This document shows positions 3,489 to 24,591 of a stretch of DNA of 64,000 nt, in pieces (the stretch's first letter is position 1; each line of letters begins with the position of its first letter). Both the position numbers and the translations under genes were made by a program. Origin of the DNA: Enterobacter phage phiT5282EW. The DNA is taken from the sequence record PQ352032.1; one strand, given 5' to 3'. The notes under the pieces are model-generated. The model ran no database searches. It worked only from the letters and a program-made list of their open reading frames with translations, and had not been told where the DNA came from.

Positions 3489-3492
3489 TTTT

Positions 3493-3568
3493 GATTCTGT
3501 AGCTACAGCGGTAGAGCGGCGCACTGTTAATGCGCGGGTCGCTGGTTCGAATCCAGCCAGAATCGCCA
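3493..3568 (+). tRNA. tRNA-Asn (anticodon GTT)
   Basis: 76-nt cloverleaf by hand fold: acceptor GATTCTG/CAGAATC, D-arm GCTA-CAGCGGTA-GAGC, anticodon stem GCGCA/TGCGC with loop CT-GTT-AA, variable GGGTC, T-arm GCTGG TTCGAAT CCAGC, discriminator G, encoded CCA. Anticodon arm resembles E. coli tRNA-Asn. Confidence 0.8.
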
Positions 3569-3734
3569 GAGTAATCATGGGTTGGTTACAAGCCTGTCAG
3601 AAGGCAATCCCGCCCCGGCTCCTCCTCAGGTCGCCGGGGCACCTTCCCAGAATTAAGGGCAGTCCCTTACTTCTGCGTCGGTAAGAGCGGAGAATCAGGA
3701 AATTTCGACCGTAGTACCAAAACATTGCTTCCTT

Positions 3735-3760
3735 GCCGCCCCCGTGGGCGGCTTTTTTTT
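3735..3760 (+). terminator. rho-independent terminator after tRNA cluster
   Basis: GCCGCCC-CCGT-GGGCGGC hairpin followed by T8 on the plus strand. Confidence 0.7.
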
Positions 3761-3777
3761 AGCCTGAGGAGTAACCC

Positions 3778-4305
3778 ATGAATATCTTTCGCCGCATCCT
3801 GAATAAAATCTTTGGCATCCCACCAGCGCCACCAGAGCCGAAGATCGAGCCGCCAAAGTTCGGCGGTGATTTCCCGCGCCCGGTCTCCGTCACCATGAAG
3901 GCTACTCAGACCGTCAAGCAGGATCCGATGGCTGCGGCGGTCGCCCGTGCAAAAAGGGACGCGGAGAAAACTGCCGTAAAAGGCAACGTCAGCAGCGCGA
4001 GCAGCAGCTCCACCACACGCCCTGCATATGATCCACTCATGGATCCACTTAACCCGTTAAGCCCGCTATATGTTGGCGTAACAGTTGAGGAGCCGCGCCA
4101 CCGCGTACAGTATCAGGAGGCGACGACGATCAGCGATACCACGCACCGACACGTTTCCAGCCATTCTGAGCCAGTACGCAGCTACAGCTCGCACAGCAGC
4201 AGCCATTCGAGCCATGACTATGGCAGCAGCCACTCAAGCCACAGCAGCCACGACAGCGTCAGCTATGACCACGGCAGCAGCCACCATAGCGGCAGCGACT
4301 GGTAA
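3778..4305 (+). CDS. small His/Ser-rich protein (SH-repeat C-terminus), function unknown
   Basis: 175-aa ORF with SD GAGGAG 6 nt before the ATG. Plus strand, antisense to the flanking late genes, tail-to-tail with the terminase. C-terminus is low complexity (SHSSSHSSHDYGSSHSSHSSHD...HGSSHHSGSDW). Confidence 0.55.
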   Translation: MNIFRRILNKIFGIPPAPPEPKIEPPKFGGDFPRPVSVTMKATQTVKQDPMAAAVARAKRDAEKTAVKGNVSSASSSSTTRPAYDPLMDPLNPLSPLYVGVTVEEPRHRVQYQEATTISDTTHRHVSSHSEPVRSYSSHSSSHSSHDYGSSHSSHSSHDSVSYDHGSSHHSGSDW

Positions 4306-6921
4306 TTAGTCGTCACCTTTCGAAATAAAGCCGGAGCAGCCAATATCCTCCGGCTTCACCTGCATCATGATCTCATGGCAGGATCTGGTCTCCGGGTCGT
4401 AGTTCACACAGCGCCCGCAAACATCCCCGCGATACTTCACGCTGTTCACCTCCTCCATGTAGCTCACCAGCGTCTGATCAACGCCGATATCCAGCGGGCT
4501 CAGGCGCTCGATCTTCACCTGCGGTGCATCCGGCAGAATAAACGTACTGGTACCATGCGCACGGCTCCATGCCACATCGCACAGCAGGTTTGCGTATGAG
4601 AAGTGTGGATCGATGCCGATTTTCTTCACGCTGCGCTTGTACTGGTTCGTTTCCTCGTCCTTCTCAGCCACCAGCGCCGTTTTGGTGAAGTGCGTGAACA
4701 TTACCGGGGCCACGGCTTCCACGCGCGTGACGCCCTTCTCACGAATCTCCTGCACCAGCCCCTGAGGGTCTGGGATGAGGCAGATTGGCTCGTCGGCAGT
4801 GAAGCGGGCCATGGAGACCTGCATACACTTATACTGGTCAATGCGGACGGTGTAGCGATCCTGTTCGTTCTCGTCGGTGCGCACATCGGACTTGTCCAGC
4901 TTCATGCTGTCATTCCACTGGATCATGCCATCCGCTACAGTACCGAAGCTATTACAGATGAATACCCGGCCTTTGTGACGGTTGGCGAAGCGCTTGGCGT
5001 CGTTGTAGTTCGGGTTGATTTCCACCACGCAGCAAGCCACGCCGTACTGGTTCATCAGCTCGCTACAACGGGCAAACGGATCCTCGCTGTAAATCATTTC
5101 GATGTGGACAATCGCTTGGTGCCCGGAGGGCAGTCGCTCCTTGATAACCACCACGTTAAACTGGCCCATCTGGTCAATACCCATGTAGCAGTTATCTGCG
5201 CGGGACTTCCACTGCACGCCGAAACGCAGACCATGCTTAACGCAATTTGCCAGGTGTTCCAGCGTTACCGGAACCAGCGACGGATCGAGGAACGGCTTGC
5301 CCAGTTTACGGTTATAGAAGTTTTTCATATCCGTAGCGTTGTTGAAGGCGGAAATAATCTCGCCGGGGCTGATTGTCGGTGACAGGAACTGCGGAAAGTG
5401 CGCCGACCGGATGCACATTTCCCCTTCCTCATTCTCCGGCGCATCCGGGATCCATTCCCCGCGCTGCGTGTCCTCAATCCAGCCTCCGCAGCTGTAGCAG
5501 ACATATCGGTGGCGTCTGGTGTCCGGGTCGTACTTAATGCACTGCGGGAAATAGTCATCCAGCGGTTTCTTTTCGAGGCAGTGCGGGCACTCGGTATGGA
5601 AACGGTACTGGGATCCCAGCTTGTACCAGTGGTGGATATCGGAGTCGGGCCAGTTGGCGGTGGAGCCCATCAGGCTGTAACGGATCGGGGATGCAGACAG
5701 ACGCTCACGCGTTTTCTCCATCTGCTCCAGTGACATTTCCTGCACCTCATCGAAGCTCAGGACATCCATCGGGATGGATTCGGTAGTCGCGCGGCCCGAT
5801 GTCCAGCTGAATACAAACATGGCCTCACCGATGCGACGTGTACGCACGTTACCCTCGCCTTTCTTGCGACCGCCGCCTTTCTCATCGTCCTGCACCATGA
5901 GCGCATGTACCTCAGGTACGGTGCGCACAATCGGCATGAAGCGCTCGGAGGACTTGATCCCCGCCAGCGCGGCATCCGGCAAGAACATGCCGATAGTCAT
6001 CGGTTGGAAGCGCAGGCCAAGGTAAATAACAGCGAGCATTTCCATGACGGTAAAGCCCACCTGCGCACACTTCATCAGCACCAGCGTTTTGCGGTATGCC
6101 TCCTCGACGGTGCTGGGGATCTGGTCATAAATCCACGCCATCGCCGGGCGGTTGTCCAGCTTGAACGGGCGACCATCCACTTTGAGGCCGGTTTCGCCCA
6201 GCCGGATGCACCACTCCAGAAAGGTCTCGTTTGGCTTGAGGATTTTCTGGGAAGCGGTCAGTACAAAGGTCGTATCGAGGAATTCAGCATCATAGCGCTG
6301 GCGCTTCTCATCCCCGGTCGTGCTGTCCATTTTCTCCAGGAATGCCGCGTCGAGGTTGTGGCGGTTGGTCTCGGTCGGCACGCGGCGTCGGAACCAGTCA
6401 GGATCCAGCTCGGCTTCCATCCACAGGCGATAAAAGTCGTGATTCTTCCCGTAGGCCCCGGACAGGAACCATGCACTGCCGTGGTACTCGCGCAGGCACT
6501 CAGCCAGCGTGTCACCCCAGATCTGCATGAAGTTGTAAATCTCGCGCACGTCATCAATGATCATCAGGCCATACTGCCCATTAACCTCTTTCAGGCTGTC
6601 AGCCGCGTAAAGGTCAATGTACTGGCCCGACAGCAGCGTGATGCGCCTGCTGGTTGAGCTCTTGATGAGGGGATCGATGGCCTGTACGATCCGCGTGCGC
6701 ACCTCCATGAGGTCTTTGTACGTGGCGCTCATCCACATCGCCGGGGCAGGGTTATTCATGATGCCCTGTTTACCAGCCACCAGCGCCTCTATGCCAAGGG
6801 TTGTTTTTCCTGCCTTCTCGCCCATGGCAATAACGTTAAAACGCGCCGCACGGTCGATACAGACCTGCAACGCGTCATTGAGAATGGGCAGCTTAATTTT
6901 AACGGTCTTTTGGCGTGCCAT
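4306..6921 (-). CDS. terminase large subunit (GpA-like), with C-terminal extension
   Basis: Walker A GEKAGKTT near the N-terminus and a CxxC...C..C zinc-ribbon segment (CPHCLEKK...CYSCGGW). About 871 aa. Start placed at ATG 6921 with AAGGA SD; the track's TTG start is at 6957. Confidence 0.7.
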   Translation of the reverse strand: MARQKTVKIKLPILNDALQVCIDRAARFNVIAMGEKAGKTTLGIEALVAGKQGIMNNPAPAMWMSATYKDLMEVRTRIVQAIDPLIKSSTSRRITLLSGQYIDLYAADSLKEVNGQYGLMIIDDVREIYNFMQIWGDTLAECLREYHGSAWFLSGAYGKNHDFYRLWMEAELDPDWFRRRVPTETNRHNLDAAFLEKMDSTTGDEKRQRYDAEFLDTTFVLTASQKILKPNETFLEWCIRLGETGLKVDGRPFKLDNRPAMAWIYDQIPSTVEEAYRKTLVLMKCAQVGFTVMEMLAVIYLGLRFQPMTIGMFLPDAALAGIKSSERFMPIVRTVPEVHALMVQDDEKGGGRKKGEGNVRTRRIGEAMFVFSWTSGRATTESIPMDVLSFDEVQEMSLEQMEKTRERLSASPIRYSLMGSTANWPDSDIHHWYKLGSQYRFHTECPHCLEKKPLDDYFPQCIKYDPDTRRHRYVCYSCGGWIEDTQRGEWIPDAPENEEGEMCIRSAHFPQFLSPTISPGEIISAFNNATDMKNFYNRKLGKPFLDPSLVPVTLEHLANCVKHGLRFGVQWKSRADNCYMGIDQMGQFNVVVIKERLPSGHQAIVHIEMIYSEDPFARCSELMNQYGVACCVVEINPNYNDAKRFANRHKGRVFICNSFGTVADGMIQWNDSMKLDKSDVRTDENEQDRYTVRIDQYKCMQVSMARFTADEPICLIPDPQGLVQEIREKGVTRVEAVAPVMFTHFTKTALVAEKDEETNQYKRSVKKIGIDPHFSYANLLCDVAWSRAHGTSTFILPDAPQVKIERLSPLDIGVDQTLVSYMEEVNSVKYRGDVCGRCVNYDPETRSCHEIMMQVKPEDIGCSGFISKGDD

Positions 6922-6964
6922 TGTGAATCCTTGGGTAAAATGGCCCCGAAGGGCCAAGAGGGTA

Positions 6965-9805
6965 TTATTTTTTAAGTGCTGCGATGGTAGCTTTCGCTGA
7001 TTCAGGATCGGTTAACGCGAGGTCTACCAGATCAAGAAGCTGCTTAATAGCTTCGGTATGGAAAGCCGCAGTCAGCCCGGAGTAATTGAGGCTTTTAAAA
7101 TCTTTAATCTGCGTCTTCTGGTCGTATGAGGTATGGATTCCGGTACTTACGGCTTCTGGAGCCCATGGTTCAACGTCCTGCGCGATCAGTCCTACCTCGC
7201 GGCTTTCTACATCTTTGCGCTGGTAAGTCACACCACGCCAGTTGATAACTGCTTTTAACGCATTATCCACTCTCTTAATGTCGGACTTAATGCGGATGTC
7301 TGAATCGACAACATACGCCCCGTTACCATGCAGCGTGCCATCTTGGTTTCGGAACTCCCAGCCATAACCCCCGGTATCTTTCAGGCAGTACAATTTCGCG
7401 CAGAAATAGTTACCTTGGTAATCGAGAGGATAAAGCTCGACTCGGCTGGACGCTGAGAGCGATGAGCCAAGGCGCATGACAAGCTGTGTTCCCCTTGCCT
7501 GCTTGTTGTTATCGTAGAACCCTGGTGAATAGCTATTAATGAAATCAATCGCTCCGTTAATAATGCCGCCAGAGCCAAAGGTAATCGAGCGGCAGTCACG
7601 TAAATTCGAAGCCCCAGTGACGTTCAGCCCCACAGAGGTAAGCGTACCGGGCACATTCATGCTGCCGTCGTCGCTCATATCAAAGTTAGCCGTATTATTT
7701 CGCGTCTTATTAGTCACGGTAATGCGCGCTGAATATTTAGCGCCGACCGTACCGACAGCCTGCAACATCGCCTTACATTCAGATACGCCTGCGACCTGAT
7801 AATCAGAAATAATCTGACCACCCTTGATCGAGGTGTTATTGCTCGGCAGCGCAGTATCACCATTGATCACAGACCACGACGTATTCGCGGCAACAAATCC
7901 ACCCGATGCACGAATGACCCAGACCCCAACGAAGCTACGGGGCAATACGTCATCCGTGATATTATCACGACCGTAGACACTATCAGAAATGGACGCATCA
8001 AGGGACAGTCTGTTTGACGAAGACCCTGTTCCGCTAGGAGTATAAACGCTCCCGTTAGCACCATTATAAGTTGTTAAAGAACGCTCACCACCATCTAAAC
8101 CACCTTCACCACCAGCTATTTTAACGCTACCTTTGATGTTTGGTACGGCGGCCTTATACACCAGACCATCCATACCGGAGTTACCACCATCACCACGAGC
8201 GAACAGCGCCTTAATTGAGTTGGACTGAACACCATTACGGTCAGGTACACGGAAGGTGGTAGAACCATTGCCGAGAGAGTATCTACCACGTTTAGTATGG
8301 TCTGCTAACCACTCAGCATCAGTGATGGGCGTGAGCATCTGAGCATACGCCCACAACTCGGGCCAGTCTGCGCGGTTAAGCAACTGACCGTCAGATACAA
8401 CCTCATACGGCTGAATGTATGCACGGCTATCGCGTAAGTGGAAGTCACCCACGCCGTAGTTCATCACGCCATTCATGGATGGCCCGCCAGCACCGCCAGA
8501 AGCCGAACGTAGCTGTCTCATGGTTACGGCGTCATAATCACCAACGGCATCGCCGCCCAGTTTCAGCGGGCCAGATAGCCCGGTCATGGAGGTAATGTCG
8601 TCATTTACCCCTGATTTTGCGCTTTTACGCCAGTCCGTGAATACGCTTCCATCATAGCTTCGTGACGCAATACGCCCGCTTTTGGCAATGTAAATCTGCG
8701 TAACACCACCAGATACCCCGATTGGGAATACAATCAGCTGCCCGGTTTCATCAAACGGGAAGTTATTGGCTGCGACAGCGCCAGCAACACTAGTGAGGGA
8801 TACCACGCCATAATGCGCCGGAAGGATGCGATCATTCAGGTTGATAACCGTTGTAATGACATCCAGCTGGGCGACGGCTTTCACTTCGGATGCCGCAGGC
8901 GGGTTATCGCTGGTATACATCCGGCGAGAGGCGCTCCAGACGTTATTCGTCCGTGTGATGCGATAGAGCCATGTTGGCGTCGCACCCTCGGAAGCGAAAA
9001 TTAATACCATCGAGGTGCGATCCTCATTCACGCTTTCGCAGTGAATGCGCCACGCCACTGCGCCAGCACCAGTAACCCCAGAAGGAAAACCATTCGAGCT
9101 AATAGCATCCGATGCTTTCACGCGCATAGTTTCACCTACGCGCCAGACATGCGAGGTGATCGTGTCTCCGGTGGCAGCGAAGTCGAAGTAAGGCAGTTTG
9201 ATGCCCATAAGGCCAGCATAAGCCGCTGTAAGCACCGCGCCGTCGCGGGTGGTGGTTGGGCTGGCGATCTCCTGATCGGTCAGGGAACGGGCGATATTCA
9301 GCGCTACTCCTCCGGTCGGCTGAGCACCGCTGCTGTGTGTCCAGTCGATTGTTGCACCGTTACCCGCGATCAGTAGGCCAGTCCATTTGCGCGGTGCAGT
9401 GCTCGGCGCGATGTTAAACCAGATCTCATACGTATCAGCTGCGACCTCGACCAGCTTGCCGCCAAGGATGGTCGCTGAATTTACGCCAAGGTTAGTCTGG
9501 GCAGTAACGGTGATGCGTGCCGGATCACCGACAGTGGTCACAGAGCCGTCGCCTGTCTGCATGACAATGTTGGCGAATCCAGTACCAGTCACCACCATCA
9601 GCGTAATGGCAATTTTGCCCTGCGCTAGATTGGAGATCTTGCCCATCTTCTGCCAGCTATCTGACGTGATATCCCAGTCAGTGAGCATCACGGCATTTTT
9701 ATCCAGCATGGTCAGAGCATCGGTCAGCTTGCCCACATCAATTTTTAACGGGTTGGTCAGGTATGGGACAGGAAGCCCAAGCCGGGGAGTAGTTTTGTCC
9801 ACCAT
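6965..9805 (-). CDS. tail fibre/tailspike with C-terminal peptidase S74 intramolecular chaperone domain
   Basis: 946 aa. C-terminal ~120 aa (DSDIRIKSDIKRVDNALKAVINWRGVTYQRKD...REVGLIAQDVEPWAPEAV) matches the self-cleaving chaperone domain of endosialidase/T5 pb1-type fibres. Central Gly/Thr/Ser-rich beta-type region. Confidence 0.8.
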   Translation of the reverse strand: MVDKTTPRLGLPVPYLTNPLKIDVGKLTDALTMLDKNAVMLTDWDITSDSWQKMGKISNLAQGKIAITLMVVTGTGFANIVMQTGDGSVTTVGDPARITVTAQTNLGVNSATILGGKLVEVAADTYEIWFNIAPSTAPRKWTGLLIAGNGATIDWTHSSGAQPTGGVALNIARSLTDQEIASPTTTRDGAVLTAAYAGLMGIKLPYFDFAATGDTITSHVWRVGETMRVKASDAISSNGFPSGVTGAGAVAWRIHCESVNEDRTSMVLIFASEGATPTWLYRITRTNNVWSASRRMYTSDNPPAASEVKAVAQLDVITTVINLNDRILPAHYGVVSLTSVAGAVAANNFPFDETGQLIVFPIGVSGGVTQIYIAKSGRIASRSYDGSVFTDWRKSAKSGVNDDITSMTGLSGPLKLGGDAVGDYDAVTMRQLRSASGGAGGPSMNGVMNYGVGDFHLRDSRAYIQPYEVVSDGQLLNRADWPELWAYAQMLTPITDAEWLADHTKRGRYSLGNGSTTFRVPDRNGVQSNSIKALFARGDGGNSGMDGLVYKAAVPNIKGSVKIAGGEGGLDGGERSLTTYNGANGSVYTPSGTGSSSNRLSLDASISDSVYGRDNITDDVLPRSFVGVWVIRASGGFVAANTSWSVINGDTALPSNNTSIKGGQIISDYQVAGVSECKAMLQAVGTVGAKYSARITVTNKTRNNTANFDMSDDGSMNVPGTLTSVGLNVTGASNLRDCRSITFGSGGIINGAIDFINSYSPGFYDNNKQARGTQLVMRLGSSLSASSRVELYPLDYQGNYFCAKLYCLKDTGGYGWEFRNQDGTLHGNGAYVVDSDIRIKSDIKRVDNALKAVINWRGVTYQRKDVESREVGLIAQDVEPWAPEAVSTGIHTSYDQKTQIKDFKSLNYSGLTAAFHTEAIKQLLDLVDLALTDPESAKATIAALKK

Positions 9806-9893
9806 TTCCGGGATCTCTCTTGTTCAGGAATAGCTGACATTCTGGAATCACTACGGGGAAATAAAAAGCCCGGACGGTGCCGGGCTGGAAGGT

Positions 9894-10148
9894 TTACCAC
9901 TTGAATTGTCGCTGCTCGTCCTCGCAGAGCCCGAACAGCTTATGCACGCCACAGTAAACAGCCCCGGCGACGACGACCACCATCACAAGGCCCATCAGCA
10001 TGGAACCGAAGCCAAGAGCCGCAAGGCCAGAAGTAATGCCTGCTGCACTCAATCCTGAAACCTTCCCCAAAAGGCTGATCAGCAGGATAGGCGTTCCTGC
10101 CGCTGCTGCGCCTGCTGTGACTTGTTTTGCCACTGTGTACCCGTTCAT
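9894..10148 (-). CDS. small membrane protein (2 TM, holin-like?)
   Basis: 84 aa with two hydrophobic Gly/Ala/Leu-rich segments. Confidence 0.45.
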   Translation of the reverse strand: MNGYTVAKQVTAGAAAAGTPILLISLLGKVSGLSAAGITSGLAALGFGSMLMGLVMVVVVAGAVYCGVHKLFGLCEDEQRQFKW

Positions 10149-10579
10149 TACCGCCCCTTTTTATGTGTCGCTGAGCGGTGCTGTCCGCTGTAGCGATGGT
10201 TTCCATATGCCGGATCATCGAACCATGAAGTTTGACGCTGCTTACTTTTACCGGAATAAGCGGAGTAAGGCGGTTTCGGCTGGAGTTTAGCCATCACTTG
10301 CCAAACGTCATAGCAGGCATCATGGAAACGGCGATCCGTTGTCGAGTCCTTGAAATTGCTGTACATCATTTCCGCGACGTACTGCGCCAGCATGGATTGC
10401 AGCTCCTCGCGGTTGACGAACACTCGGAACTGGTAATCGCGGTGATCGTGCGTGACCACTTCTTTGGTCGGGAAGTATTTGTTCAGATGCTCTTTACGGC
10501 GAGCACGTACTTGGATCACTTCCGGGTCTTGTTTGTCTACGACAGCAGACAGAAAGCCATCAGATAAAATCAGCCACAT
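10148..10579 (-). CDS. hypothetical protein
   Basis: 143 aa. ATG with GAGGA SD at -7. Overlaps the downstream gene start by 1 nt. Confidence 0.5.
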   Translation of the reverse strand: MWLILSDGFLSAVVDKQDPEVIQVRARRKEHLNKYFPTKEVVTHDHRDYQFRVFVNREELQSMLAQYVAEMMYSNFKDSTTDRRFHDACYDVWQVMAKLQPKPPYSAYSGKSKQRQTSWFDDPAYGNHRYSGQHRSATHKKGR

Positions 10580-10640
10580 GGCGTATTCCTCAGGTTGGAT
10601 TGGTTAACGGCTGAGATAATACGTCATGCGTGCCGTATGG

Positions 10641-11504
10641 TCAATCTTTTTTCTTACCTAAATACGCGTCAAGCACCATTTGGTCGGGCTTCATGTTCAT
10701 TAGCTCGCGCAGCTTGTTTTTTGGTACCAGCTGGACGGCCTGCGTTTCCCAGCCCATCGCTACCGGGGAACCACCGACGCGCTTCGCCAGATACATGCGA
10801 GAAACGGACGTGGTGCGCTCAAAGTCACCCAGCACGCCAGTGATCTCGATCTGTAGCCCGGACTCCTCCCATGTCTCTTTGATGGCGTTCTGCTGGAGCG
10901 TGAGCCCCGGCTCAGTGCCACCCTTCGGGAAAGTGTTCTGGTAGCCGCCGAAAGCGTTGGTCGGGCTGATAATCCACACGCGACCGTCAGGCTCCTCAAT
11001 GATGACGCCGGACGCTGGACGCTTCCCGGCTGGCACCATTAACGGCTGCTCGGTCATCTGTTTGGTGCCCTTCACAAAGGCCCAGCCAGCGTCGGTTTTC
11101 GGTGCGCCAGTCCACGGCGCGACCGGGACGCCATTCAGCTCCTGCGGTGCTGCACCATTAGGCGTGAAGGTGGCCACCTCGTTGCTCGCGGCCCACGTTG
11201 GCGCTTCGGTCGGTTTGCTCGGATGGTTAACCACGACGCGGTTGCCCTTCTCACCCAGTCGCGGATGGTGGACAATCTTCGTCGGTAGTCCTTTGCTGGC
11301 GGTAGTCCTGTGCGTGCCATACGGCGTCGTGGGCAGCGCTGGCTTGCGGTAATAGGCTTTCTTGGCCTGAGGCTTCGCAGGCGCTTTGGGGGCCGCAGGC
11401 GCATCAGGTTTGGCTGCTGCCTTCCCGTTGTCGTGCGGCTTCACCCATACGCCATCGCTCCGGCGATAGCCCTTCACCTGCGCTTTCAGGAAAAGTTTAG
11501 TCAT
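10641..11504 (-). CDS. NUDIX hydrolase with Lys/Ala/Pro-rich N-terminal region
   Basis: Nudix box GGTEPGLTLQQNAIKETWEESGL (G-x5-E-x7-KE-x2-EE-x-GL). Start set at ATG 11504, which overlaps the upstream gene's stop (ATGACTAA), rather than the track's 11618. The N-terminal 150 aa is basic and low complexity (AAAKPDAPAAPKAPAKPQAKK). Confidence 0.7.
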   Translation of the reverse strand: MTKLFLKAQVKGYRRSDGVWVKPHDNGKAAAKPDAPAAPKAPAKPQAKKAYYRKPALPTTPYGTHRTTASKGLPTKIVHHPRLGEKGNRVVVNHPSKPTEAPTWAASNEVATFTPNGAAPQELNGVPVAPWTGAPKTDAGWAFVKGTKQMTEQPLMVPAGKRPASGVIIEEPDGRVWIISPTNAFGGYQNTFPKGGTEPGLTLQQNAIKETWEESGLQIEITGVLGDFERTTSVSRMYLAKRVGGSPVAMGWETQAVQLVPKNKLRELMNMKPDQMVLDAYLGKKKD

Positions 11505-11979
11505 TGCCTTCCACTCCCAGCATCCATTGCGCCATGGATTCGACGCTGGACTGCACGCGGGCGGCGATTTCTGCATCCTTCCCGCCCTTGTCAAATGCCT
11601 GGTAAATACTGATCGCAAAGCGGGCCATCGCGTGCGCGACGATCAGCGCGGGATCCGTTTCATCCTTCGCCAGCCCCTTCACGTTCTGGATCCAGCGCGG
11701 CAGCGCGAAGTCATTCCAGCCCGGCAGCACGCTAAAGCCTGCGGTGTTACCCACAAAGATGTTAGCGGTGTTCAGCGCCTGCGCACGGTCGGCCTCCAGC
11801 GCTTCTTTCTCAGTCATCTGGTTGGCCTGCACCTTAGCGATGCGTCCCACGATGTCCTTGGCGAAGTTATTCAGGATGGTGCGTGCCACGTTGATATCGC
11901 CCAGATAAACGCTGCCATCAGCAGCGTTCAGACCTTCGATAAACCACGTTGGATCAGTATGTCGGTTCAATTCAGCCAC
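11497..11979 (-). CDS. hypothetical protein (virion module)
   Basis: 160 aa. Packed tightly between the giant ORF and the NUDIX gene. Confidence 0.5.
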   Translation of the reverse strand: MAELNRHTDPTWFIEGLNAADGSVYLGDINVARTILNNFAKDIVGRIAKVQANQMTEKEALEADRAQALNTANIFVGNTAGFSVLPGWNDFALPRWIQNVKGLAKDETDPALIVAHAMARFAISIYQAFDKGGKDAEIAARVQSSVESMAQWMLGVEGND

Positions 11980-11988
11980 AGAGCCCCC

Positions 11989-14900
11989 TTATACGCTCGG
12001 CAGGATGATACATTCCACAACGGTCATGCCGCTGCCGCCAAAGCCATCGGCGTCCTTAGTCCCCGATTCGTTCACCTTAGTGATGAGTAGGCGGGTATTA
12101 GGTGGCAGGATAATTTCTTTTTCCCCGGTATGGTGCGAGATAGATCCACCACTCGGAAGCGAGCCAGCGCCCGCATAGATACCTTTTACGCCGGGGCCTG
12201 CTGTCATTTTGAGGTGAATATTACCACTCCACACGTCTGGACTGATAGACGTGGACATAATTGCAGGCTCCATGATGACCTTGCCGACCGACGCTTTCAG
12301 CTTGGAGAGATCACCGCTGCCCAGACTGAATTTGCGCCCGAACGTGGTACCCGGCGAAATTTCATGGCCCATACCAGACAGCGCCTGCGCTGCTGCTTTC
12401 GCTTCTGCGCTTGGGTTGCCCTTCCACAGTCCGCTGTTCATCTGCTTATAACTGCTACCAGTATACGCCTGCACGGCCTGCTTTTGTGTCATCGGCAGCT
12501 TTTCCCACACTTCCTGTGCTGCTTTGGCATAAGTGTTTGTGGTCAGCGTGCCAGCCTTGAAAGTGGTTTTAGTAATGCCAAGGTCTTCCGGCTCAACAAT
12601 CCCCGGATGGCCCAGCACCAGCAGGTTCCCGATCTTGTCTGCATCGTTACCGCTCCAGTTTTCCGGCTTGTATTCTTCGTGCATCGAATACAGCGGGTGA
12701 TCGCCGCCGATACGGAACTGCTCGGCTTCATGCCCGGTAAGCTGGCTCTTAATCTCGTTAATCGCCTGCATCGCGTAGCCTTTGATGTGCTGCGATGGGT
12801 GATCGAGCACTGGCACCTGTCCGGTAACAGCTCCGGTGTCTTTGTCAAAGGTTGGCGCGGTCAGGCCGCGAATGGCTTCCGGGTCTCCGGTCAGCGCCGC
12901 AGAATAAATGGCCTGCGCCGCGTCGTGGTTCCCTTTGTTCAGGAACTCTTTGGAGGACGGGCCGGATTTGCCAACGCCAGACCAGTTGAGGAAGTCAGGC
13001 GGGGTACTGATTTTCTCCGGCTTGAATTTCTGCATTTTGATGATCTGCTCGGCTTCCGGGTACTTCTCAGCCAGATACTCTTTGCGCTTGATGAGCGTTT
13101 CCACCAGCTCTTTTTTGGCCTTCTCATCGCCCGGCCCATACTGGTTGACCATGTGCGCGATTTTGGCGTCGGAGATAGCCAGCACCTTGGAGACAGACGC
13201 GGCGATATCGGCCTCAGTCATGCCACCGAAGACGGCGGCGCTGTTCGCGTTCATCTTCGGATCCATCAGTGACTCCAGCTCCTTAACTACCGGGCCAAAT
13301 TCTTTCTTCGCACCCTGCGCACGGAACATCAGCGAGCCGCCCGCATCGACGCGGTGAATGGTGCCGTCATCTTTCAGCTGCACGTTGTCTTTCGCCAGCC
13401 CCACGACATCCCAGTTACCCAGCCACGCATCAACGGCAAAGCCTTCCAGCATACCCTTGGCCTTCGCCAGCGCTGCATGGGTTTTGGCCTTCTTGATGTT
13501 CTCCCACTTCGAGGCAATAGCCATTTTCCCGTCCTTGGTGACGATCATGGCGTCCTGCGCGGACAGGCCAGCGGCGCTATACAGTTTCGCTGCCAGCACC
13601 TCAGCCTTGGCGTGCTCCTCGTTATCCGGGAACTTCACATACCATTCCTGCCCATCGGCGTCCTTCATTTTCATGCCTTCATTCGAACCGCCTTGGTTGC
13701 CCCCGGTCACTGTCCACTCATCGACGCTGATCGGCTCTTTCTTCTTCCACTGGTACTTTTTGACCTCCATCGGGCCATCAGCGGCAAGGCCATTCTCTGC
13801 CGGGTTGCTGGTCGCGGCGGTAGCATTCATCAGCTGCGCGACGCCATTCATAGCATAGGTGCCATTCACCTCAGGGTTATAACCGGACTTAACCTTGATC
13901 CCATTAGCCATCAGCATCATCGACGCATATTGCGCCAGCGCCTTTTTACCCGGCGCGGTCGGGCCATACTCCGTTGAGACCTTAATTTTCATCCCAAACT
14001 CGCCATAAATCAGCATCGAACCATCGGCTTTCTGCATGATGACGCCTTTGGTGCCGCCGCCTTTGGTCAGCTTGGCTTTGAGGTTATCTACATATTTCAT
14101 GTAGTGATCCTGCTGCCAAGCGCTCAGGCCAAGCGCAGCGAAGTCAGGTGCCGGGATCTCGTCAGGATTGGCCCTAACCCAGCGCCCGTTTTTCAGGATC
14201 AGCATCCCATTGGCACCCGGCTTCATGTCGCCTTCTTTCGGGCCATCGCCTTCTTTCTGGCCCTCGTCGGCTTTCTTAGCATCTTCTTCGGCTACGGTGT
14301 TTTTGATAGCCGTCAGGATCCCTTCGATAGCCACAGGAGTAAAGTCGTTGATGATAAGCACGCTCTTAATGGTGCTGACCGCATCCACTTTGTCCGGGTT
14401 GGCGTCGTAGTATTCCTTGCACGCCACCGACGCCTTGACGACCTTTTGCAGCCCGGTTTTGGTCTCCGCGATGCTCTTGATGTCGTCCAGCAGTTTCAGG
14501 TCGATATTACCCAGCTCCGGCGCGGCAGGTTCAGGCGCAGGCGCAGGCTCCTCAGCTCCGGTGATCTGATCCTGTACAAAGGTCATGGTGCTGATCGCGT
14601 AATCCGTCATGCTCATCTTGACCACATCGGTGCCCTGATTCGCCATCAGCGCATACGCGGACTCTTTGACGCTGTTCAGCACGGCCTCTTTCATTTCCGG
14701 CGAGTCGGTGTACTTCGCCAGCATCGCCATCGCTGCCAGACCATCCAGCGCATCTGCATCCGCCATGCTATCGCCCTTGTAACTGGCTTTCGGGATCCCC
14801 TGCGGGACGCCGTGCATGTTGATGCTGTCTTTCAGTATGGACTGGAGGACAGGGATATGGGCCACGTTATCGCCTGCGGCCTTCACGATGTCCTGATAGG

Positions 14901-17900
14901 TGGCAGGGTTGTCGCCTTTCTTCGCCACGTATTCCTGCACAGCCATGAGCGTTTCGAGGTTGTCTTTGGCGTTGTTGAAGACCAGCCCAAGGTCATACAT
15001 GTTTTTCGGCTTGCCCGGCGCAGCGGTCAGCTTGTCCAGCACCTCAGCCATGTACTCCTTGTACTTGGTACCGTTGATCGTGGTGCTCGGCGTCACGTTC
15101 TGCTCATATTTCATAGCCTCAATGAGCAGCTTTTTGCTGTTCTCATCCTTCGCCAGTGTTGCAGCGATGGCGTAGCCCTGAAAATCAGTTGCCTCGGTCG
15201 AGTAGAAACCAACGTCCGGCTTAATCGGCAGGTTGAGCGGCTTGCCATGCTTTTTGAAGTAAGCCTGACCGATTTCAGACGCAGCGTAGACGTGCCCGCT
15301 GTTCATTTTCAGGATATTGTCGATAACAGTCGTGTACGCGCCCTTATCGCCATGGTTATCCTTGATGAATTCCAGACCGATGCTGGTCGCATCATCGCCG
15401 TTCGCGCCAGCGAGGGCCTGTTTGAGCGCCACAATCTCGCTGCCCGCGCTGCCATTGGCTGAGGTCTCAGGCATATCCTGCTGTAAGATCCAGTGCCCAT
15501 TATGGAAGACCAGAATACCGCCTTTACCCTGCTTGGTATCACCTTCTTTCGGGCCATCCTCTACCAGCCACTTATTGACCTCCTGCTGGTACAGTTTAAC
15601 CTGCACAGCAGCTGGCTCTGAAAGGTGAAGCTCGCTCAGCTCATTAAAGTGCTTGGCAATCACATCAGGATCTGATTCTTTGCCTTTGTGAACTTCTTCG
15701 GCAATGACGTTATAGAGGGTCTGCACTTTCGTGCCATAGGTTTTCACCGTGTCGCTGGTTGGTGATACCAGCGGTTTTTCTGGCTCAGTCCCGTAAGTCT
15801 CACTCCACCACTTACCATAGGCTTTCTTGCCAGCGATAAAGAACTCATTCGCCAGCTCGTTAAACCCATTGTCCTTCATGGCCTCAGCCAGCACCACCAG
15901 CTGCGGCGCATCATGCCCATTCGCCGTCATCCAGTCGCCAGCAATCGCGTCGGCCTGTTTTTCGTCCTTGGCATCTGTCAGCGCATCAAAGGCGCTTTCC
16001 CACATGGCGTAATCATTCAGGATCGCTTTCTTCTCCTGCTTACGCTCATGTTTGGTGGTAATCTGCTCGGATTTCGCCGCAGCCTGAGATTTCTCAGCCC
16101 ATGAATCGTACAGCTTCCCGACACTGGACTCGGAGAAAGCCAGATCGCTACCGTAATAAGTAGATGCCTGCTCAATGAATGCCTCGCCTTTGGTCTTCGC
16201 CCACTCGTTGAACTCAGCCACATCGTTGAATTCTGGCAGCTGCGGTTCAGGGGTTGGCGCACGCTCCTGCTTGATCTGAGGTGGCGTCGGCAGCGATTTC
16301 ACGGAGATATCGCCCAGCTCTTTCTTGGCGGCGGTCACGGCTTCGATGATCCACGCGGACAGGTCAACCTTCTGGAAGGCATCAATCAGGTTCTGGTCAT
16401 CACGGATCACTGTCACCATGTCGTTGATGTTGTCCACAGCCAGCGCCCAGTTACCCGCGTTGAGGTCATTCTGGATGTCCTCACAGATGCCGTCGATAAA
16501 CGCATCACCAGTCTGCGGAGGATTGGAGAAAGTCTTCGTGCCCGGCTCCGGTGCAGCAGTTTGCAGGCCAAGGGATTCCGCCAGATTTACGGACGGGGTT
16601 TTGCCAGCCATGATCTGCTGGTAGACCTCATTCTGCGTGTTGGAGAAGCCGGAGATATGGCCCCAGTCGCCCTTCTCGTTAACCCACATGCCTGAGCCCG
16701 GATTCTTCGGATCCGCGACGATGACGGCGCTGGTATTGGTCGGGTAAACGCCTGCGTCTGGAGTCGTGGACAGCACGCCATTCCACATGTTCTTGATGAC
16801 GTTTTGCTGCTTCTGGGTCAGGTGATTCGGCTTGCCCAGCTCCACCAGCTCGGTCGGGTACTCGCTATGGTGATAGTCGGAAATGTAGCCCAGATTGTCC
16901 GGGGTTTTGGTGTTGCCACCAAAGCCGATCAGTTTCAGGTACTGTCCCGCTTGGAACGGCTTAGCCAGCGGCTCACCCTTCTTGCTTATAGGCCATGCGG
17001 TCGCGTGCCCCATCAGCACTTTCAGGTACGGCTTACCGTCCTTGTCGTAGGTCTGGATGATTGAGCCTGCGGGCAGGTTCGGCATATCGGAGATCGACAG
17101 CTTCTGGCCCTTTTTGAACTCACCAGCGACAGGCTGATCCTTGAGCGGCTCGCCAGTCTCCTGATTGTGCCAGCGACCGTCTTTGAAAACCTGCATCCCG
17201 TTTTTGCCCATGCGGGTATCACCTTCCTGCGGGCCTTCCTCAGCCCGGACGGTTTTCTGCTGCTCAACCTCTGCGCTGGCCTTCTGATCCTTTTCTGCCT
17301 GGCTAAACTGGCCCAGCATTGGATGCACGGCGTCTTTGCCGATAACCACTTTGATATCCGGGTAGCCCAGCGCTGCCAGCGCGTTATTCGCAGCCTTGGC
17401 GACTTTGAGCCCGTAGGTGTTTTTTCCGTATGTCATCGCCAGAATGCCGTTGATGTTGCCTACTTCGCCAGCGGCCTTGATAGCGGCGATCTGCGCGTTG
17501 TAGCTTTTGGCATTCTTAATGTTCTCCGCGACGGCGAACTGGCTCCAGTCGATAGCGTCCATGGCCTTCTTCGACACGGATGCTTTCGGGGCTGGCTTGC
17601 CTTCGGCGGTGTCCGGCTGCGCCGGGGAGGTAGCGATGATTTCCACTGCGCTCAGTGGGCTCGGTTCCTCGGACTGCACCAGCGGCTTATTCGGGTTCTC
17701 ACCCGTTAGCAGCGCCAGCTTTTGACCGTAGAGGTTCAGCAGCTTTTTGCTATTCGGGGTGATACCCTTCCAGCTTTTCGCCTTGGTCTTGATGGCTTCC
17801 AGCTCCGCCAGACTGGTGGCGTCGATAACCTTCTGAGCCTGCGCCTCATACGCGGTGCGCACGCCAGTGGAGTTTTTGCCGGATTCAAATTTAGGCATGA

Positions 17901-18762
17901 CGATTTCGCCTGGCTTCGGTGCTTCGGCAGCAGGTGTTGAGGCTTTCTGGACTTCTTCTTTAGCTGCGTTTTTTTTCTCAGGTGAAGGAGACGGCCCATC
18001 TTTTGGCATAATAAGGCTTAGTTTTTTTGCGCCACCCGGTTCAGTTTTAAAGTATCCAAACTGCGTACCGTAATTCTCAATCGCGTGCAGCTGGTGCTGT
18101 TTTAAATCACCAATCTCAATAGTGATGACGTTATTTTTTACTTTGTATGCTTCAATCGGTGGCAGACCTAGGTAACTCTCAATTCCAGAAACAATGGCTT
18201 GTTGTTTGGCTGTCAAATTACCTGTAGCTGGTTTTGTTGCTGCCTTTGCCTCTTGCGCTACGGCTTCAACGGCCTGCTCAGCCATCTGATCGACGGTCTC
18301 AGGCTCTCTCTCGTATGTGGCGATGGCAGGGTGCTCACCCGCTTTCTGGCCCGCGCTGACCTTCTCCTGCGAGCCCATTTGCTCCAGCAGATAGTTGGCA
18401 ATCGCCACCAGCTTTTTACCGTGGGTGTTCACGCCATAGGAGGATCCCAGAATCGCCGCGATATCGCCGTTGGCAGCGTGCTGCAACAGGTTCGGGACGT
18501 GCTTCTGGTTGAAATGCTTAATGTCTTTGTTGGTCGCCTCTTTCTCAGCAGGATAGAGCAGCTGGCTCGACTCCTCCTGAGGCATGGCGTAAGGCTTATG
18601 GCCTTTGCCACCAGCTTTAGGGTGCGCGGCTTTCGGAGCGTTCTTGACGCCCTTCATGTCCGGCGTGGTTTTCTTCCAGCGCCCATTGATCAGCGCATAG
18701 CCCGCTTGGTGGGCGAATTTTTGATTAAGTGCTTTTGCGAGGACAAGCATGGTGGCCACCAT
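11989..18762 (-). CDS. giant multidomain virion-associated protein with C-terminal mono-ADP-ribosyltransferase (R-S-E, actin-toxin-like) domain
   Basis: 2257-aa uninterrupted ORF. The C-terminus carries YTGSSYKQMN, FGRKF, IMSTSIS and GEKEIILPP motifs in mART order. Internal kinase-like segment (DAWLGNWD...HRVDAGG). Three copies of a PKEGDTKQGKGGILVFHNGHW-type module. Lys/Ala/Glu-rich. Alternative start at ATG 18750. Confidence 0.75.
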   Translation of the reverse strand: MVATMLVLAKALNQKFAHQAGYALINGRWKKTTPDMKGVKNAPKAAHPKAGGKGHKPYAMPQEESSQLLYPAEKEATNKDIKHFNQKHVPNLLQHAANGDIAAILGSSYGVNTHGKKLVAIANYLLEQMGSQEKVSAGQKAGEHPAIATYEREPETVDQMAEQAVEAVAQEAKAATKPATGNLTAKQQAIVSGIESYLGLPPIEAYKVKNNVITIEIGDLKQHQLHAIENYGTQFGYFKTEPGGAKKLSLIMPKDGPSPSPEKKNAAKEEVQKASTPAAEAPKPGEIVMPKFESGKNSTGVRTAYEAQAQKVIDATSLAELEAIKTKAKSWKGITPNSKKLLNLYGQKLALLTGENPNKPLVQSEEPSPLSAVEIIATSPAQPDTAEGKPAPKASVSKKAMDAIDWSQFAVAENIKNAKSYNAQIAAIKAAGEVGNINGILAMTYGKNTYGLKVAKAANNALAALGYPDIKVVIGKDAVHPMLGQFSQAEKDQKASAEVEQQKTVRAEEGPQEGDTRMGKNGMQVFKDGRWHNQETGEPLKDQPVAGEFKKGQKLSISDMPNLPAGSIIQTYDKDGKPYLKVLMGHATAWPISKKGEPLAKPFQAGQYLKLIGFGGNTKTPDNLGYISDYHHSEYPTELVELGKPNHLTQKQQNVIKNMWNGVLSTTPDAGVYPTNTSAVIVADPKNPGSGMWVNEKGDWGHISGFSNTQNEVYQQIMAGKTPSVNLAESLGLQTAAPEPGTKTFSNPPQTGDAFIDGICEDIQNDLNAGNWALAVDNINDMVTVIRDDQNLIDAFQKVDLSAWIIEAVTAAKKELGDISVKSLPTPPQIKQERAPTPEPQLPEFNDVAEFNEWAKTKGEAFIEQASTYYGSDLAFSESSVGKLYDSWAEKSQAAAKSEQITTKHERKQEKKAILNDYAMWESAFDALTDAKDEKQADAIAGDWMTANGHDAPQLVVLAEAMKDNGFNELANEFFIAGKKAYGKWWSETYGTEPEKPLVSPTSDTVKTYGTKVQTLYNVIAEEVHKGKESDPDVIAKHFNELSELHLSEPAAVQVKLYQQEVNKWLVEDGPKEGDTKQGKGGILVFHNGHWILQQDMPETSANGSAGSEIVALKQALAGANGDDATSIGLEFIKDNHGDKGAYTTVIDNILKMNSGHVYAASEIGQAYFKKHGKPLNLPIKPDVGFYSTEATDFQGYAIAATLAKDENSKKLLIEAMKYEQNVTPSTTINGTKYKEYMAEVLDKLTAAPGKPKNMYDLGLVFNNAKDNLETLMAVQEYVAKKGDNPATYQDIVKAAGDNVAHIPVLQSILKDSINMHGVPQGIPKASYKGDSMADADALDGLAAMAMLAKYTDSPEMKEAVLNSVKESAYALMANQGTDVVKMSMTDYAISTMTFVQDQITGAEEPAPAPEPAAPELGNIDLKLLDDIKSIAETKTGLQKVVKASVACKEYYDANPDKVDAVSTIKSVLIINDFTPVAIEGILTAIKNTVAEEDAKKADEGQKEGDGPKEGDMKPGANGMLILKNGRWVRANPDEIPAPDFAALGLSAWQQDHYMKYVDNLKAKLTKGGGTKGVIMQKADGSMLIYGEFGMKIKVSTEYGPTAPGKKALAQYASMMLMANGIKVKSGYNPEVNGTYAMNGVAQLMNATAATSNPAENGLAADGPMEVKKYQWKKKEPISVDEWTVTGGNQGGSNEGMKMKDADGQEWYVKFPDNEEHAKAEVLAAKLYSAAGLSAQDAMIVTKDGKMAIASKWENIKKAKTHAALAKAKGMLEGFAVDAWLGNWDVVGLAKDNVQLKDDGTIHRVDAGGSLMFRAQGAKKEFGPVVKELESLMDPKMNANSAAVFGGMTEADIAASVSKVLAISDAKIAHMVNQYGPGDEKAKKELVETLIKRKEYLAEKYPEAEQIIKMQKFKPEKISTPPDFLNWSGVGKSGPSSKEFLNKGNHDAAQAIYSAALTGDPEAIRGLTAPTFDKDTGAVTGQVPVLDHPSQHIKGYAMQAINEIKSQLTGHEAEQFRIGGDHPLYSMHEEYKPENWSGNDADKIGNLLVLGHPGIVEPEDLGITKTTFKAGTLTTNTYAKAAQEVWEKLPMTQKQAVQAYTGSSYKQMNSGLWKGNPSAEAKAAAQALSGMGHEISPGTTFGRKFSLGSGDLSKLKASVGKVIMEPAIMSTSISPDVWSGNIHLKMTAGPGVKGIYAGAGSLPSGGSISHHTGEKEIILPPNTRLLITKVNESGTKDADGFGGSGMTVVECIILPSV

Positions 18763-18794: not shown

Positions 18795-19004
18795 CTAATT
18801 AACGTCTTTCACCTTCCGACCAAAGCGCTCCACGCACGCGAGAAACGCCTCCTGTTTCGTGTGGCAGTGCTCCGACAGCATGGTGGAGTGCTTGCCGTCC
18901 GTGAACTGGATTTCCCACTTCGCGGATCCGGTCTTTGGCGGGCCGGGCCAGTCAGCGGCGGCGTCGTATACCGCCTGCTGCTCCGGGGTCATCTGGAAAC
19001 TCAA
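18795..19004 (-). CDS. hypothetical protein
   Basis: 69-aa ORF in the operon. Confidence 0.4.
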   Translation of the reverse strand: MSFQMTPEQQAVYDAAADWPGPPKTGSAKWEIQFTDGKHSTMLSEHCHTKQEAFLACVERFGRKVKDVN

Positions 19005-19441
19005 CGGCCTGCCGCCTTCTTGAGCTCCACGACGATACAGTGGAGCGTGTCCAGCTGTTCATCGGTCGCATGACTCAGCAGCTGGCTCAGGCCAAAGCCA
19101 CCACTCATTTCGTTCTGGATGACGCTGCGCATTGCTGCCTTGCGCTGCTCATAGGCAAAGTCAGCCTCGTCACGGTAAACGTCAAGCGCAGGATATCCGC
19201 CTGTCTTCGGAACATGGTTGTAATTACTCCAGTCCTTAATGGCGATGCGCTCCTGCCAGCACTCCGGCACGCTATTGGTCTCATTGGCGCGGTCAATATC
19301 TGACTGCCGGGCGACGTAAAGCCATTTGGTGCCTTTGCGGACAACAATCATGATCCCGCGCGGGGGGCTGCGCTTATCGCGTGAGCCAATAAACAGGGTG
19401 TCTCCCTTTTTCAGGGCTTTCAGGTCGGCTTCTTTCAGCAT
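19001..19441 (-). CDS. hypothetical protein
   Basis: 146 aa. 4-nt overlap with the downstream gene. Confidence 0.5.
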   Translation of the reverse strand: MLKEADLKALKKGDTLFIGSRDKRSPPRGIMIVVRKGTKWLYVARQSDIDRANETNSVPECWQERIAIKDWSNYNHVPKTGGYPALDVYRDEADFAYEQRKAAMRSVIQNEMSGGFGLSQLLSHATDEQLDTLHCIVVELKKAAGR

Positions 19442-20690: not shown

Positions 20691-20720
20691 AAAAAAGCCT
20701 CACCTTGGGTTGGTGAGGCT

Positions 20721-20749
20721 ATATTATTACGTCATGGGTGACGTGTCAA
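20721..20749 (-). promoter_or_regulatory. sigma70-type promoter of the conserved ACGTCA-box family (d)
   Basis: On the minus strand: TTGACA-CGTCACCCATGACGTAA-TAATAT. The -35 overlaps the stop codon of the upstream gene. Confidence 0.6.
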
Positions 20750-24562: not shown

Positions 24563-24591
24563 ATTATTTACGGCATACGTGACGCATCAAA
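24563..24591 (-). promoter_or_regulatory. sigma70-type promoter, ACGTCA-box family (e)
   Basis: Minus strand: TTTGAT-GCGTCACGTATGCCGTA-AATAAT. The -35 overlaps the stop of the methyltransferase gene. Confidence 0.5.

Follow-up and report, generated by a model that had tools for sequence, protein, structure and literature searches.

A giant, arginine-poor phage protein ending in predicted kinase-like and ADP-ribosyltransferase domains is a probable virion effector of an ECML-606-1-like coliphage

The 64,000-nucleotide stretch of Enterobacter phage phiT5282EW analyzed here (PQ352032.1; hereafter, the window) contains one open reading frame (ORF) whose size alone raises a question: what does a phage do with an uninterrupted run of 2,257 codons, and at what point in infection would the product act? 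A first-pass annotation, made from the sequence alone, proposed that this ORF (hereafter, the giant) encodes an injected protein carrying a kinase-like segment and an ADP-ribosyltransferase (ART) domain. Our analysis indicates that the giant is probably a polyvalent virion effector of an ECML-606-1-like coliphage, loaded into the particle, delivered, and acting on the host through its kinase and ART domains. As such it is of an already known kind, the Alt-like polyvalent virion effectors, and some databases already annotate its relatives as ARTs. Three features appear to be new: a family-wide purge of arginine, an N-terminal motif common to the giant and a neighboring Nudix protein, and a conserved ART-kinase-Nudix cassette. 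The giant and its C-terminal domains are listed below; residue numbers count from the first ATG (M1) throughout unless marked M5.

11989..18762, minus strand: whole giant ORF, uninterrupted, 2257 codons from the first ATG, stop included in the span
13054..13728, minus strand: protein-kinase-like domain (aa 1679-1903), with G1692-S-N-x-G1696, K1710, E1721, D1778, N1783, D1785, R1804, and D1806
12547..13020, minus strand: conserved pre-ART region (aa 1915-2072) of helical and small beta elements, always accompanying the ART within the giant family
11995..12540, minus strand: R-S-E mono-ADP-ribosyltransferase domain (aa 2075-2256), with key residues Y2100, R2143, S2170-T-S2172, and E2214-K-E2216

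The giant is indeed the largest ORF of the window, the next largest encoding 968 aa, and it lies on the minus strand, which the first-pass annotation had not specified. Its true start is probably the second ATG (M5, nt 18750), giving 2,253 aa; this start is favored because the orthologues and the annotation of Escherichia phage ECML-606-1 begin MLVLAKA..., and the consensus start across the giant's relatives is M-[LPI]-[VI]-L-[AF]-L-K-A. At the DNA level the gene is 99.0% identical to its counterpart in ECML-606-1 (OL631484, 94,968 bp), to which the window as a whole is 99% identical; indels away from the giant gene shift the ECML-606-1 coding sequence coordinates relative to the window, and the annotation of that genome reads "hypothetical protein" on every gene. 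The source is an ECML-606-1-like coliphage in an unclassified group of ~86-95 kb phages.

All motif strings quoted in the first-pass annotation were recovered in the giant's translation and mapped: YTGSSYKQMN (2100-2109), FGRKF (2141-2145), IMSTSIS (2168-2174), and GEKEIILPP (2213-2221) in the ART region, and DAWLGNWD (1778-1785) and HRVDAGGSLMF (1803-1813) in the kinase-like region. They are not chance occurrences, because the Pfam family PF03496 matches above its gathering threshold, the kinase region has homologues, and the repeated hairpin modules described below are conserved in five orthologous phage proteins. The Lys/Ala/Glu-rich composition is likewise real (A 11.9, K 10.1, G 8.8, E 6.9%).

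Profile hidden Markov model searches identified the ART domain directly. PF03496 (ADPrib_exo_Tox) matches aa ~2080-2233 with an E value of 4.7e-11; in the segment scan it scores 42.8 bits against a gathering cut-off of 23.4 and covers profile positions 6-179 of 196, and with the whole giant scanned it scores 36.3 bits. PHROG 802, "Alt-like RNA polymerase ADP-ribosyltransferase," also matches the giant (E 5e-7), as does SpvB in NCBIfam, below threshold. A single-sequence search of the PDB with the giant returned SpvB (the best match), VsdC, and Lmo0066, while a profile of the 16-member family matched Vip2 (1e-13), CDTa (3e-11), Lmo0066 (4.5e-10), and iota Ia (8e-9), in addition to C3-like enzymes, Vis, Plx2a, C2I, and Certhrax.

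Structure prediction agrees with these assignments. An AlphaFold2 (AF2) model of aa 1915-2257, built with 16 homologues, has a mean pLDDT (per-residue model confidence) of 83, rising above 88 over nearly all of the ART core. Comparison of the ART model with the PDB using Foldseek gave 146 matches at E ≤1e-3, all of them C3/VIP2-group ARTs with probability 1.0, with Plx2a, Certhrax, Lmo0066, CDTa, C3bot1, and VIP2 at the top. The first-pass annotation had held that a lack of ART fold in structure prediction would count against its proposal; the fold was found. In the alignment of ART homologues (A3, alignment numbering), R229, S258 (the third position of STS), E300, and E302 are invariant or nearly so, and E2210/E2212 (M5 numbering) are invariant in the alignment of the 16-member family (A4).

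The label "actin-toxin type," given to this domain in the first pass, survives as a description of resemblance, which is real in both sequence and fold, but not as a guide to the target. It is not diagnostic because T4 Alt shares the E-x-E-[VI]-[IL]-L-P motif and because the two-domain architecture of the binary toxins is absent; the same resemblance is also common to C3-like enzymes. The C3-like and binary-toxin ARTs (VIP2, CDTa, iota Ia, C2I, C3bot, Plx2a, Certhrax, and SpvB) provide the best profile and fold matches and have the ExE ARTT motif in common with the giant. However, identity to them is only 14-22%, and the giant carries a single ART at the end of a 2,250-aa virion protein of a phage with a bacterial host. 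Binary actin toxins combine two tandem ART folds with a B component, whereas in the giant one ART fold aligns, the 160 residues upstream of it form a family-specific region rather than an adaptor ART, and no B-component-like gene was found among the scanned neighbors. Within the R-S-E clade, E-x-E (C2, iota, VIP2, Alt) goes with an arginine acceptor, unlike Q-x-E (C3). By analogy, the ExE motif predicts that the giant's ART is arginine-specific.

Upstream of the pre-ART region, the segment first described as kinase-like proved to be so: its AF2 model is confident (pLDDT 88, pTM 0.84), and a fold search identified it as kinase-like. The predicted structure is bilobal with a helical C-lobe. A search with aa 1591-1930 yielded 20 homologues (E 1e-30 to 1e-92), among which the domain is fused to PF03496 ARTs, NUDIX, or a WGR domain, and their alignment displays a Gly-rich loop, the Lys in "WYVK," the Glu in "AKxEVLAAKLY," "DAWLxNWD," and "RVDxGG." The eight elements listed above for this domain, from G1692-S-N-x-G1696 to D1806, are invariant across the 16 family members (A4). 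Each kinase element can be placed in the giant, with GGSNEG (1691-1696) as the Gly-rich loop, K1710 as the beta3 Lys, E1721 as the alphaC Glu, D1778...N1783 as the catalytic D-x4-N, and D1806-A-G as the metal-binding D-x-G, these roles being assigned by motif order and not by residue-level superposition.

For this region, neither Pfam nor NCBIfam returned a match to a curated kinase family (Pkinase, HipA_C, CotH, PI3_PI4_kinase), and the domain profile matched no PDB sequence, so that the fold search alone identified the domain. Judged from the predicted model, the giant's domain is a genuine protein-kinase-like fold in which no catalytic element is missing, and because of these absent matches we place it in a separate, uncurated family within that fold. 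The nearest structures are the atypical kinase folds of Helicobacter pylori CtkA (3akj), CotH, PI4K type II, MavQ, and HipA; unlike CtkA, CotH, PI4K, and HipA, members of the giant's kinase family lie within virion giants or in fusions with Nudix, WGR, or ART domains.

The kinase-like domain occurs in 19 of 50,697 phage records. Among the predicted viral structures of BFVD, it is found in Gordonia phage proteins of 770-1,480 aa, in a 1,201-aa "portal protein" fusion, in "ADP-ribosyltransferase" proteins of 1,220-1,340 aa, and in Nudix proteins. Gordonia phage GodonK gp67 carries it, and the gene directly follows the portal gene. In Actinomycetia phage DSL-LC01, aa 1667-1891 of a 3,289-aa ORF (1979-11848 of the examined locus L011) form the kinase-like domain; the ORF, which otherwise lacks Pfam annotation, lies two genes upstream of the capsid maturation protease and is another uncharacterized head-module giant.

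To place the giant in its family, we searched the same 50,697 phage records by tblastn and found full-length or partial orthologues in six other phages: Yersinia phage fHe-Yen8-01; Pseudomonas phages Dolphis, Jeremy, and Touem01; Morganella phage Mecenats66; and Aeromonas phage ST4. Family members range from 1177 to 2413 aa among phages with 86-95 kb genomes, and several phage orthologues are already annotated "ADP-ribosyltransferase." The fHe-Yen8-01 orthologue, 53.5% identical over 95% of the giant's length, is named "ADP-ribosyltransferase toxin" in its record and carries the added note "phage particle associated protein," which we take as the depositor's statement of virion proteomics. This note supports the virion association suggested in the first pass. 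In fHe-Yen8-01 the same flag is attached to the next two genes (a 160-aa protein and a Nudix protein) and to upstream DNA methyltransferases. The one phage of the group for which we found a reported morphology is Mecenats66, a myovirus and a relative of Dolphis (PMC9503643); its giant orthologue is not discussed in that paper.

Two further observations concern the family and its particle-flagged neighbors. A 1,476-aa relative of the giant lies at 5046-9476 of the metagenome contig Ga0395915_0000192 (74 kb) and contains a WGR domain (PF05406, E 5.7e-14) between a hairpin module and the kinase-like domain; a second copy of the kinase-like domain at that locus is fused to Nudix. In the window, positions 24587-26098 (minus strand) encode a DNA methyltransferase (PHROG 498, E 1e-129) to which a ParB-like domain is fused N-terminally; this protein may also travel in the virion, its fHe-Yen8-01 orthologue being annotated as particle-associated.

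Taken together, these features suggest the following course of events. The giant would be produced alongside the particle proteins and packed into the head, perhaps via an N-terminal motif (LFLKA-type plus beta-hairpin), and would enter the host together with the phage DNA. In the cell, its two C-terminal enzymes, an atypical CtkA/CotH/PI4K/HipA-like kinase domain and an R-S-E ART of the Alt/VIP2/C3 type, would modify host proteins, and the outcome would be host takeover, disarmed defenses, or both, achieved jointly with the co-packaged Nudix hydrolase and 160-aa partner. The ~1,650 N-terminal residues would represent cassettes of unrecognized fold separated by conserved beta-hairpin modules. 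This scheme takes the presence of an orthologue in particles from database annotation; from the comparisons above we infer the packaging signal, injection, enzymatic activity, arginine specificity, and targets. The virion-effector reading is further supported because the kinase-like domain recurs beside portal and maturation-protease genes and in a portal fusion. Also in its favor are the nearby terminase and portal genes, the conserved giant-160-aa-Nudix cassette, and the existence of Nudix+kinase fusions, all described below.

Large multi-effector polyvalent proteins that are packed in heads and delivered with the DNA are a published concept; ARTs are their commonest protein-modifying domain, with T4 Alt as the model (PMC5512222, PMC9503650). 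Like them, the giant is a large phage polypeptide near packaging genes with several effector domains and predicted DNA-coupled delivery; it holds at least two unrelated effector domains (kinase-like and ART) and at least three further cassettes, and the protein-modifying domains catalogued for polyvalent proteins include ARTs as well as kinases (PMC5512222). Its versions of these domains differ from the usual ones. The typical polyvalent-protein ART is of the H-Y-D type (Tox-ART-HYD2), whereas that of the giant is R-S-E (Alt/VIP2); and polyvalent-protein kinases lack the C-terminal subdomain and occur in elements of Verrucomicrobia, Chlamydia, and Bacteroidetes, whereas the giant's CtkA-like domain has a helical C-lobe and occurs in gammaproteobacterial and actinobacterial phages (PMC5512222). 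For T7, a phage kinase is reported to disarm defenses broadly (PMC13645617).

The likeness to T4 Alt, an injected internal-head ART that is specific for arginine, is closest in the ART itself, where the two share the R / S-T-S / E-x-E signature, Y-x-G-S-x-Y...N, and E-x-E-[VI]-[IL]-L-P (EME-VILP in T4), alongside the PHROG 802 match. Both are also phage proteins associated with the virion, and T4, like Mecenats66, has myovirus morphology (PMC9503643, PMC9503650). Beyond the ART they diverge: the giant is 3.3 times longer, with an added kinase-like domain, uncharacterized cassettes, and a different N-terminus, and blastp detects no similarity to the non-catalytic part of Alt, which includes the T4 capsid-targeting sequence.

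Arginine content sets the giant apart from its genomic surroundings. Only 18 of its 2257 residues are Arg (0.8%), against 10.1% Lys, whereas the 24 other long minus-strand ORFs of the window, pooled, contain 6.2% Arg and 5.0% Lys (binomial p ~7e-40), and not a single Arg occurs from aa 908 to 1526. Every one of the 21 family members is depleted (0.46-1.6% Arg), and the effect persists in phages with local backgrounds of 5.1-7.0% Arg and GC contents of 47-64%. A compositional cause was considered and rejected, given the gene's GC content of 55.3% versus 56.2% for the genome and the persistence of depletion across this GC range. Five Arg columns are conserved in the family, namely R1804, R1814, and R1893 in the kinase, the catalytic R2143, and R2224, all within the kinase and ART domains. 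The remaining Arg residues of the window's giant are variable; several sit in the hairpin modules, where the Arg of "NGRW" is often His instead.

The comparison proteins are not depleted. The co-packaged Nudix and 160-aa proteins show no Arg depletion, T4 Alt has 4.7% Arg against a 4.1% background, and two kinase-bearing giants without a detectable ART are close to their surroundings (GodonK gp67, 5.6% versus 7.0%; the 3,289-aa protein of DSL-LC01, 5.9% versus 5.3%). The WGR-containing giant of Ga0395915_0000192 was tried as a further ART-free control and rejected: it has a kinase and an ExE ART-like domain and 1.29% Arg, and so counts as another member. We found no literature on arginine depletion in ARTs. 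Read most simply, the purge would reflect selection to remove arginines that could act as acceptors for an arginine-specific ART carried on the same chain. Translocation or DNA-binding constraints and protease avoidance remain as alternatives, although the normal Arg content of the Nudix protein argues against the former two.

The genes around the giant bear both on its partners and on when it might be expressed. The features concerned are as follows.

20696..20749, minus strand: promoter-like site followed by a hairpin and T-run, by consensus match only; upstream boundary of the unit
11497..11979, minus strand: 160-aa partner gene, between the giant and Nudix genes in 7/7 loci; fHe-Yen8-01 orthologue flagged particle-associated
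10641..11504, minus strand: Nudix hydrolase gene, 287 aa (PF00293, E 2.6e-12), with N-terminal LFLKA plus hairpin; orthologue flagged particle-associated
9867..9886, minus strand: terminator-like hairpin, by consensus match only; closes the unit before the tail-fiber gene

Along the minus strand the order is giant, 160-aa gene, Nudix gene, two small genes, tail fiber (6965-9805), large terminase (4306-6957), and portal (885-2696), the last two lying within 10 kb downstream of the giant. The large terminase is unusually long (871-883 aa, with the terminase match covering aa ~243-804), and a tail-fiber gene directly upstream of it is an unusual arrangement. The order giant, 160-aa, Nudix is kept in six phages and in the 74-kb metagenomic contig. 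The 160-aa protein has no match in PHROGs, Pfam, PADLOC, or the PDB and could be a chaperone or an ART inhibitor. Over its full length, the window's Nudix protein shows 41% identity to the N-terminal half of a 565-aa Nudix+kinase fusion protein; because this fusion carries the same kinase-like domain as the giant, it links Nudix, kinase, and ART in function.

The Nudix protein begins MTKLFLKAQVKGYRRSDGVWVKPH (11430-11504, minus strand), which is of the same design as the giant's MLVLAKA...AGYALINGRWKK. Among the ORFs of the window, this combination of an LFLKA-type motif ([LIV]-L-F/A-L-K-A) with a basic beta-hairpin is confined to these two proteins, and on Ga0395915_0000192 it occurs on three adjacent ones (a 366-aa protein, the giant, and the Nudix+kinase protein). 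Because both motif-bearing proteins are flagged as particle-associated in fHe-Yen8-01, the motif could be a capsid-loading signal.

The first-pass annotation placed the giant in the late operon just upstream of the tail fiber. The position is right, but the late operon is putative: the terminator-like hairpin (9886-9867) separates the unit from the tail-fiber gene. The promoter-like and terminator-like sites bracket a putative unit of four small genes, the giant, the 160-aa and Nudix genes, and two small genes; given this shared unit and the terminator-like site, expression may be early, middle, or late. One ORF of the unit (19001-19441, minus strand; 146 aa) has a sub-threshold match to PF24203 (phage ProQ C-terminal-like; 25.8 bits versus 27).

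This arrangement fits the view that the giant is an intracellular enzyme of the ModA/ModB type, made after infection rather than injected, its detection in particles being carry-over. On that view it matters that the gene follows a run of small hypothetical genes, that the promoter-like and terminator-like sites set it apart from the tail-fiber and terminase genes, and that Pfam found no head-targeting domain in the giant. We nevertheless consider this unlikely: the orthologue and both of its downstream neighbors are flagged as particle-associated in fHe-Yen8-01, a length of 1,200-2,400 aa with non-enzymatic cassettes would be needless for a cytoplasmic enzyme, the kinase-like domain is found in head-module giants and a portal fusion, and the N-terminal motif is restricted in the window to the giant and the Nudix protein.

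The long part of the giant that precedes the kinase invites a different thought, namely that its main role is structural, for example inside the head or in the ejection conduit, with enzymes that are accessory or inactive. Its architecture, derived from blastp of the orthologues against the giant, is as follows.

18667..18750, minus strand: N-terminal motif MLVLAKA...AGYALINGRWKK (LFLKA-type plus beta-hairpin), in all family members and the Nudix protein
18232..18750, minus strand: conserved N-terminal region (aa 5-177), 78.6% identical to fHe-Yen8-01, including the first SYGxNTxGKK helical module (aa 97-157)
17401..17607, minus strand: second SYGxNTxGKK module (aa 386-454); orthologue segments match both copies by blastp
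17167..17232, minus strand: hairpin module 1, PQEGDTRMGKNGMQVFKDGRWH (aa 511-532)
15553..17166, minus strand: cassette B (aa 533-1070), unrecognized fold, only in long (>1500 aa) family members
15490..15552, minus strand: hairpin module 2, PKEGDTKQGKGGILVFHNGHW (aa 1071-1091)
14242..15489, minus strand: cassette C (aa 1092-1507), unrecognized fold, zero arginine
14176..14241, minus strand: hairpin module 3, PKEGDMKPGANGMLILKNGRWV (aa 1508-1529)

The three repeated modules noticed in the first pass are genuine, following the pattern EGD..G..G....NG[RH]W and conserved at equivalent positions in five orthologous phage proteins; a fourth, partial copy lies at the N-terminus (AGYALINGRWKK). The SYGxNTxGKK helical module, of ~50 aa, is present in two copies. 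The ~1,200-aa versions of the protein (Dolphis, Touem01, Mecenats66, ST4) consist of the N-terminal ~450 residues, one hairpin, and aa ~1506-2257, whereas those of ECML-606-1 and fHe-Yen8-01 have ~1,000 extra residues corresponding to cassettes B and C, each bounded by a hairpin module. An exhaustive HMMER search with cassettes B and C over 1.84 billion representatives returned 15 proteins only, all of 1,550-2,413 aa and all ending in kinase, pre-ART region, and ART. The cassettes thus have no relatives outside the giant family in that search and no fold recognized by sequence, and we regard them as family-specific because every match is a giant of the same family.

Searches with the N-terminal ~1,650 residues found nothing in Pfam (whole and five segments, E ≤10), NCBIfam, PHROGs, PADLOC, or the PDB (sequence and family profile). 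Matches of the N-terminal part to cytochrome b562 (E ~0.5) were set aside as helical noise, and a homologue search with the N-terminal 171 aa gave one short match. A very long Lys/Ala-rich protein, mostly without recognizable enzymes and with a particle-associated orthologue, is what a structural role would lead one to expect. Yet the two-fold range of lengths (1177-2413 aa), produced by gain and loss of cassettes, is unexpected for a ruler or a fixed element; a tape-measure role in particular was rejected since length varies by whole cassettes among relatives. The enzyme domains are, moreover, the most conserved parts, with catalytic residues intact in 21/21 members, and we judge a primarily structural role quite improbable.

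That the giant is a phage-borne exotoxin against eukaryotic cells, an actin-ADP-ribosylating C2/iota/VIP2-like enzyme spread by phage conversion, can be dismissed as highly improbable: the enzymatic components of binary actin toxins are its best family-profile matches in the PDB and SpvB the best single-sequence match, but no second (adaptor) ART-like domain was found (~200-245 columns align, with TM scores of 0.33-0.38 to 400-aa toxins), neither a B component nor a secretion signal was noticed, the phages that carry the family infect soil Pseudomonas, insect-gut Morganella, Aeromonas, and Yersinia, the fHe-Yen8-01 note makes the protein particle-associated, and the ExE-[VI]-[IL]-L-P motif is common to T4 Alt.

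Several points nonetheless weigh against the giant being a delivered, doubly enzymatic effector. Comparison of T4 Alt with the giant by blastp gives only a 20-residue match at the NAD helix (E 0.13). Some 70% of the giant is without assignable function in Pfam, HMMER, and PDB family-profile searches, and in Pfam neither the whole protein nor five segments of it matched anything but PF03496, with none of the domains that recur in polyvalent proteins (MuF, zincin-like peptidase, LPD1-40, HYD2-type ART). The particle note belongs to the fHe-Yen8-01 record alone, not to this phage, and we found no publication behind that record. The giant also shares its putative unit with small hypothetical genes, and the terminator-like site stands before the tail fiber. 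Finally, kinase folds may carry out other chemistry, such as AMPylation or glutamylation (SelO, SidJ).

If the virion-effector reading is followed further, a joint hypothesis can be framed, which we offer tentatively and hold to be possible rather than probable: arginine loss would avert self-ADP-ribosylation, the LFLKA+hairpin motif would be a portable capsid-loading signal, and ART, kinase, and Nudix would form a coordinated, injected module for takeover or anti-defense based on NAD and ADP-ribose. The main added interest of the locus lies in the arginine purge and in this ART-kinase-Nudix module. In the purge, a tethered modifying enzyme would leave a simple and testable trace, in sequence, of its residue specificity and of its protection from itself, and the common N-terminal motif is a candidate for a tag that directs cargo into phage heads.

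Enzymes delivered with the virion are active before the phage expresses any of its genes and thus decide passage past host defenses. T4 Alt is, to our knowledge, the only well-studied injected ART; the giant, if our reading is true, would add an injected two-enzyme (kinase + ART) effector with a dedicated Nudix partner. The "toxin" annotation of a relative bears on the safety assessment of therapeutic phages, and here the evidence points to a bacterial, not a eukaryotic, target. The two-enzyme effector family would span phages infecting E. coli, Yersinia, Pseudomonas, Morganella, and Aeromonas, and biocontrol use is under consideration for some of these phages.

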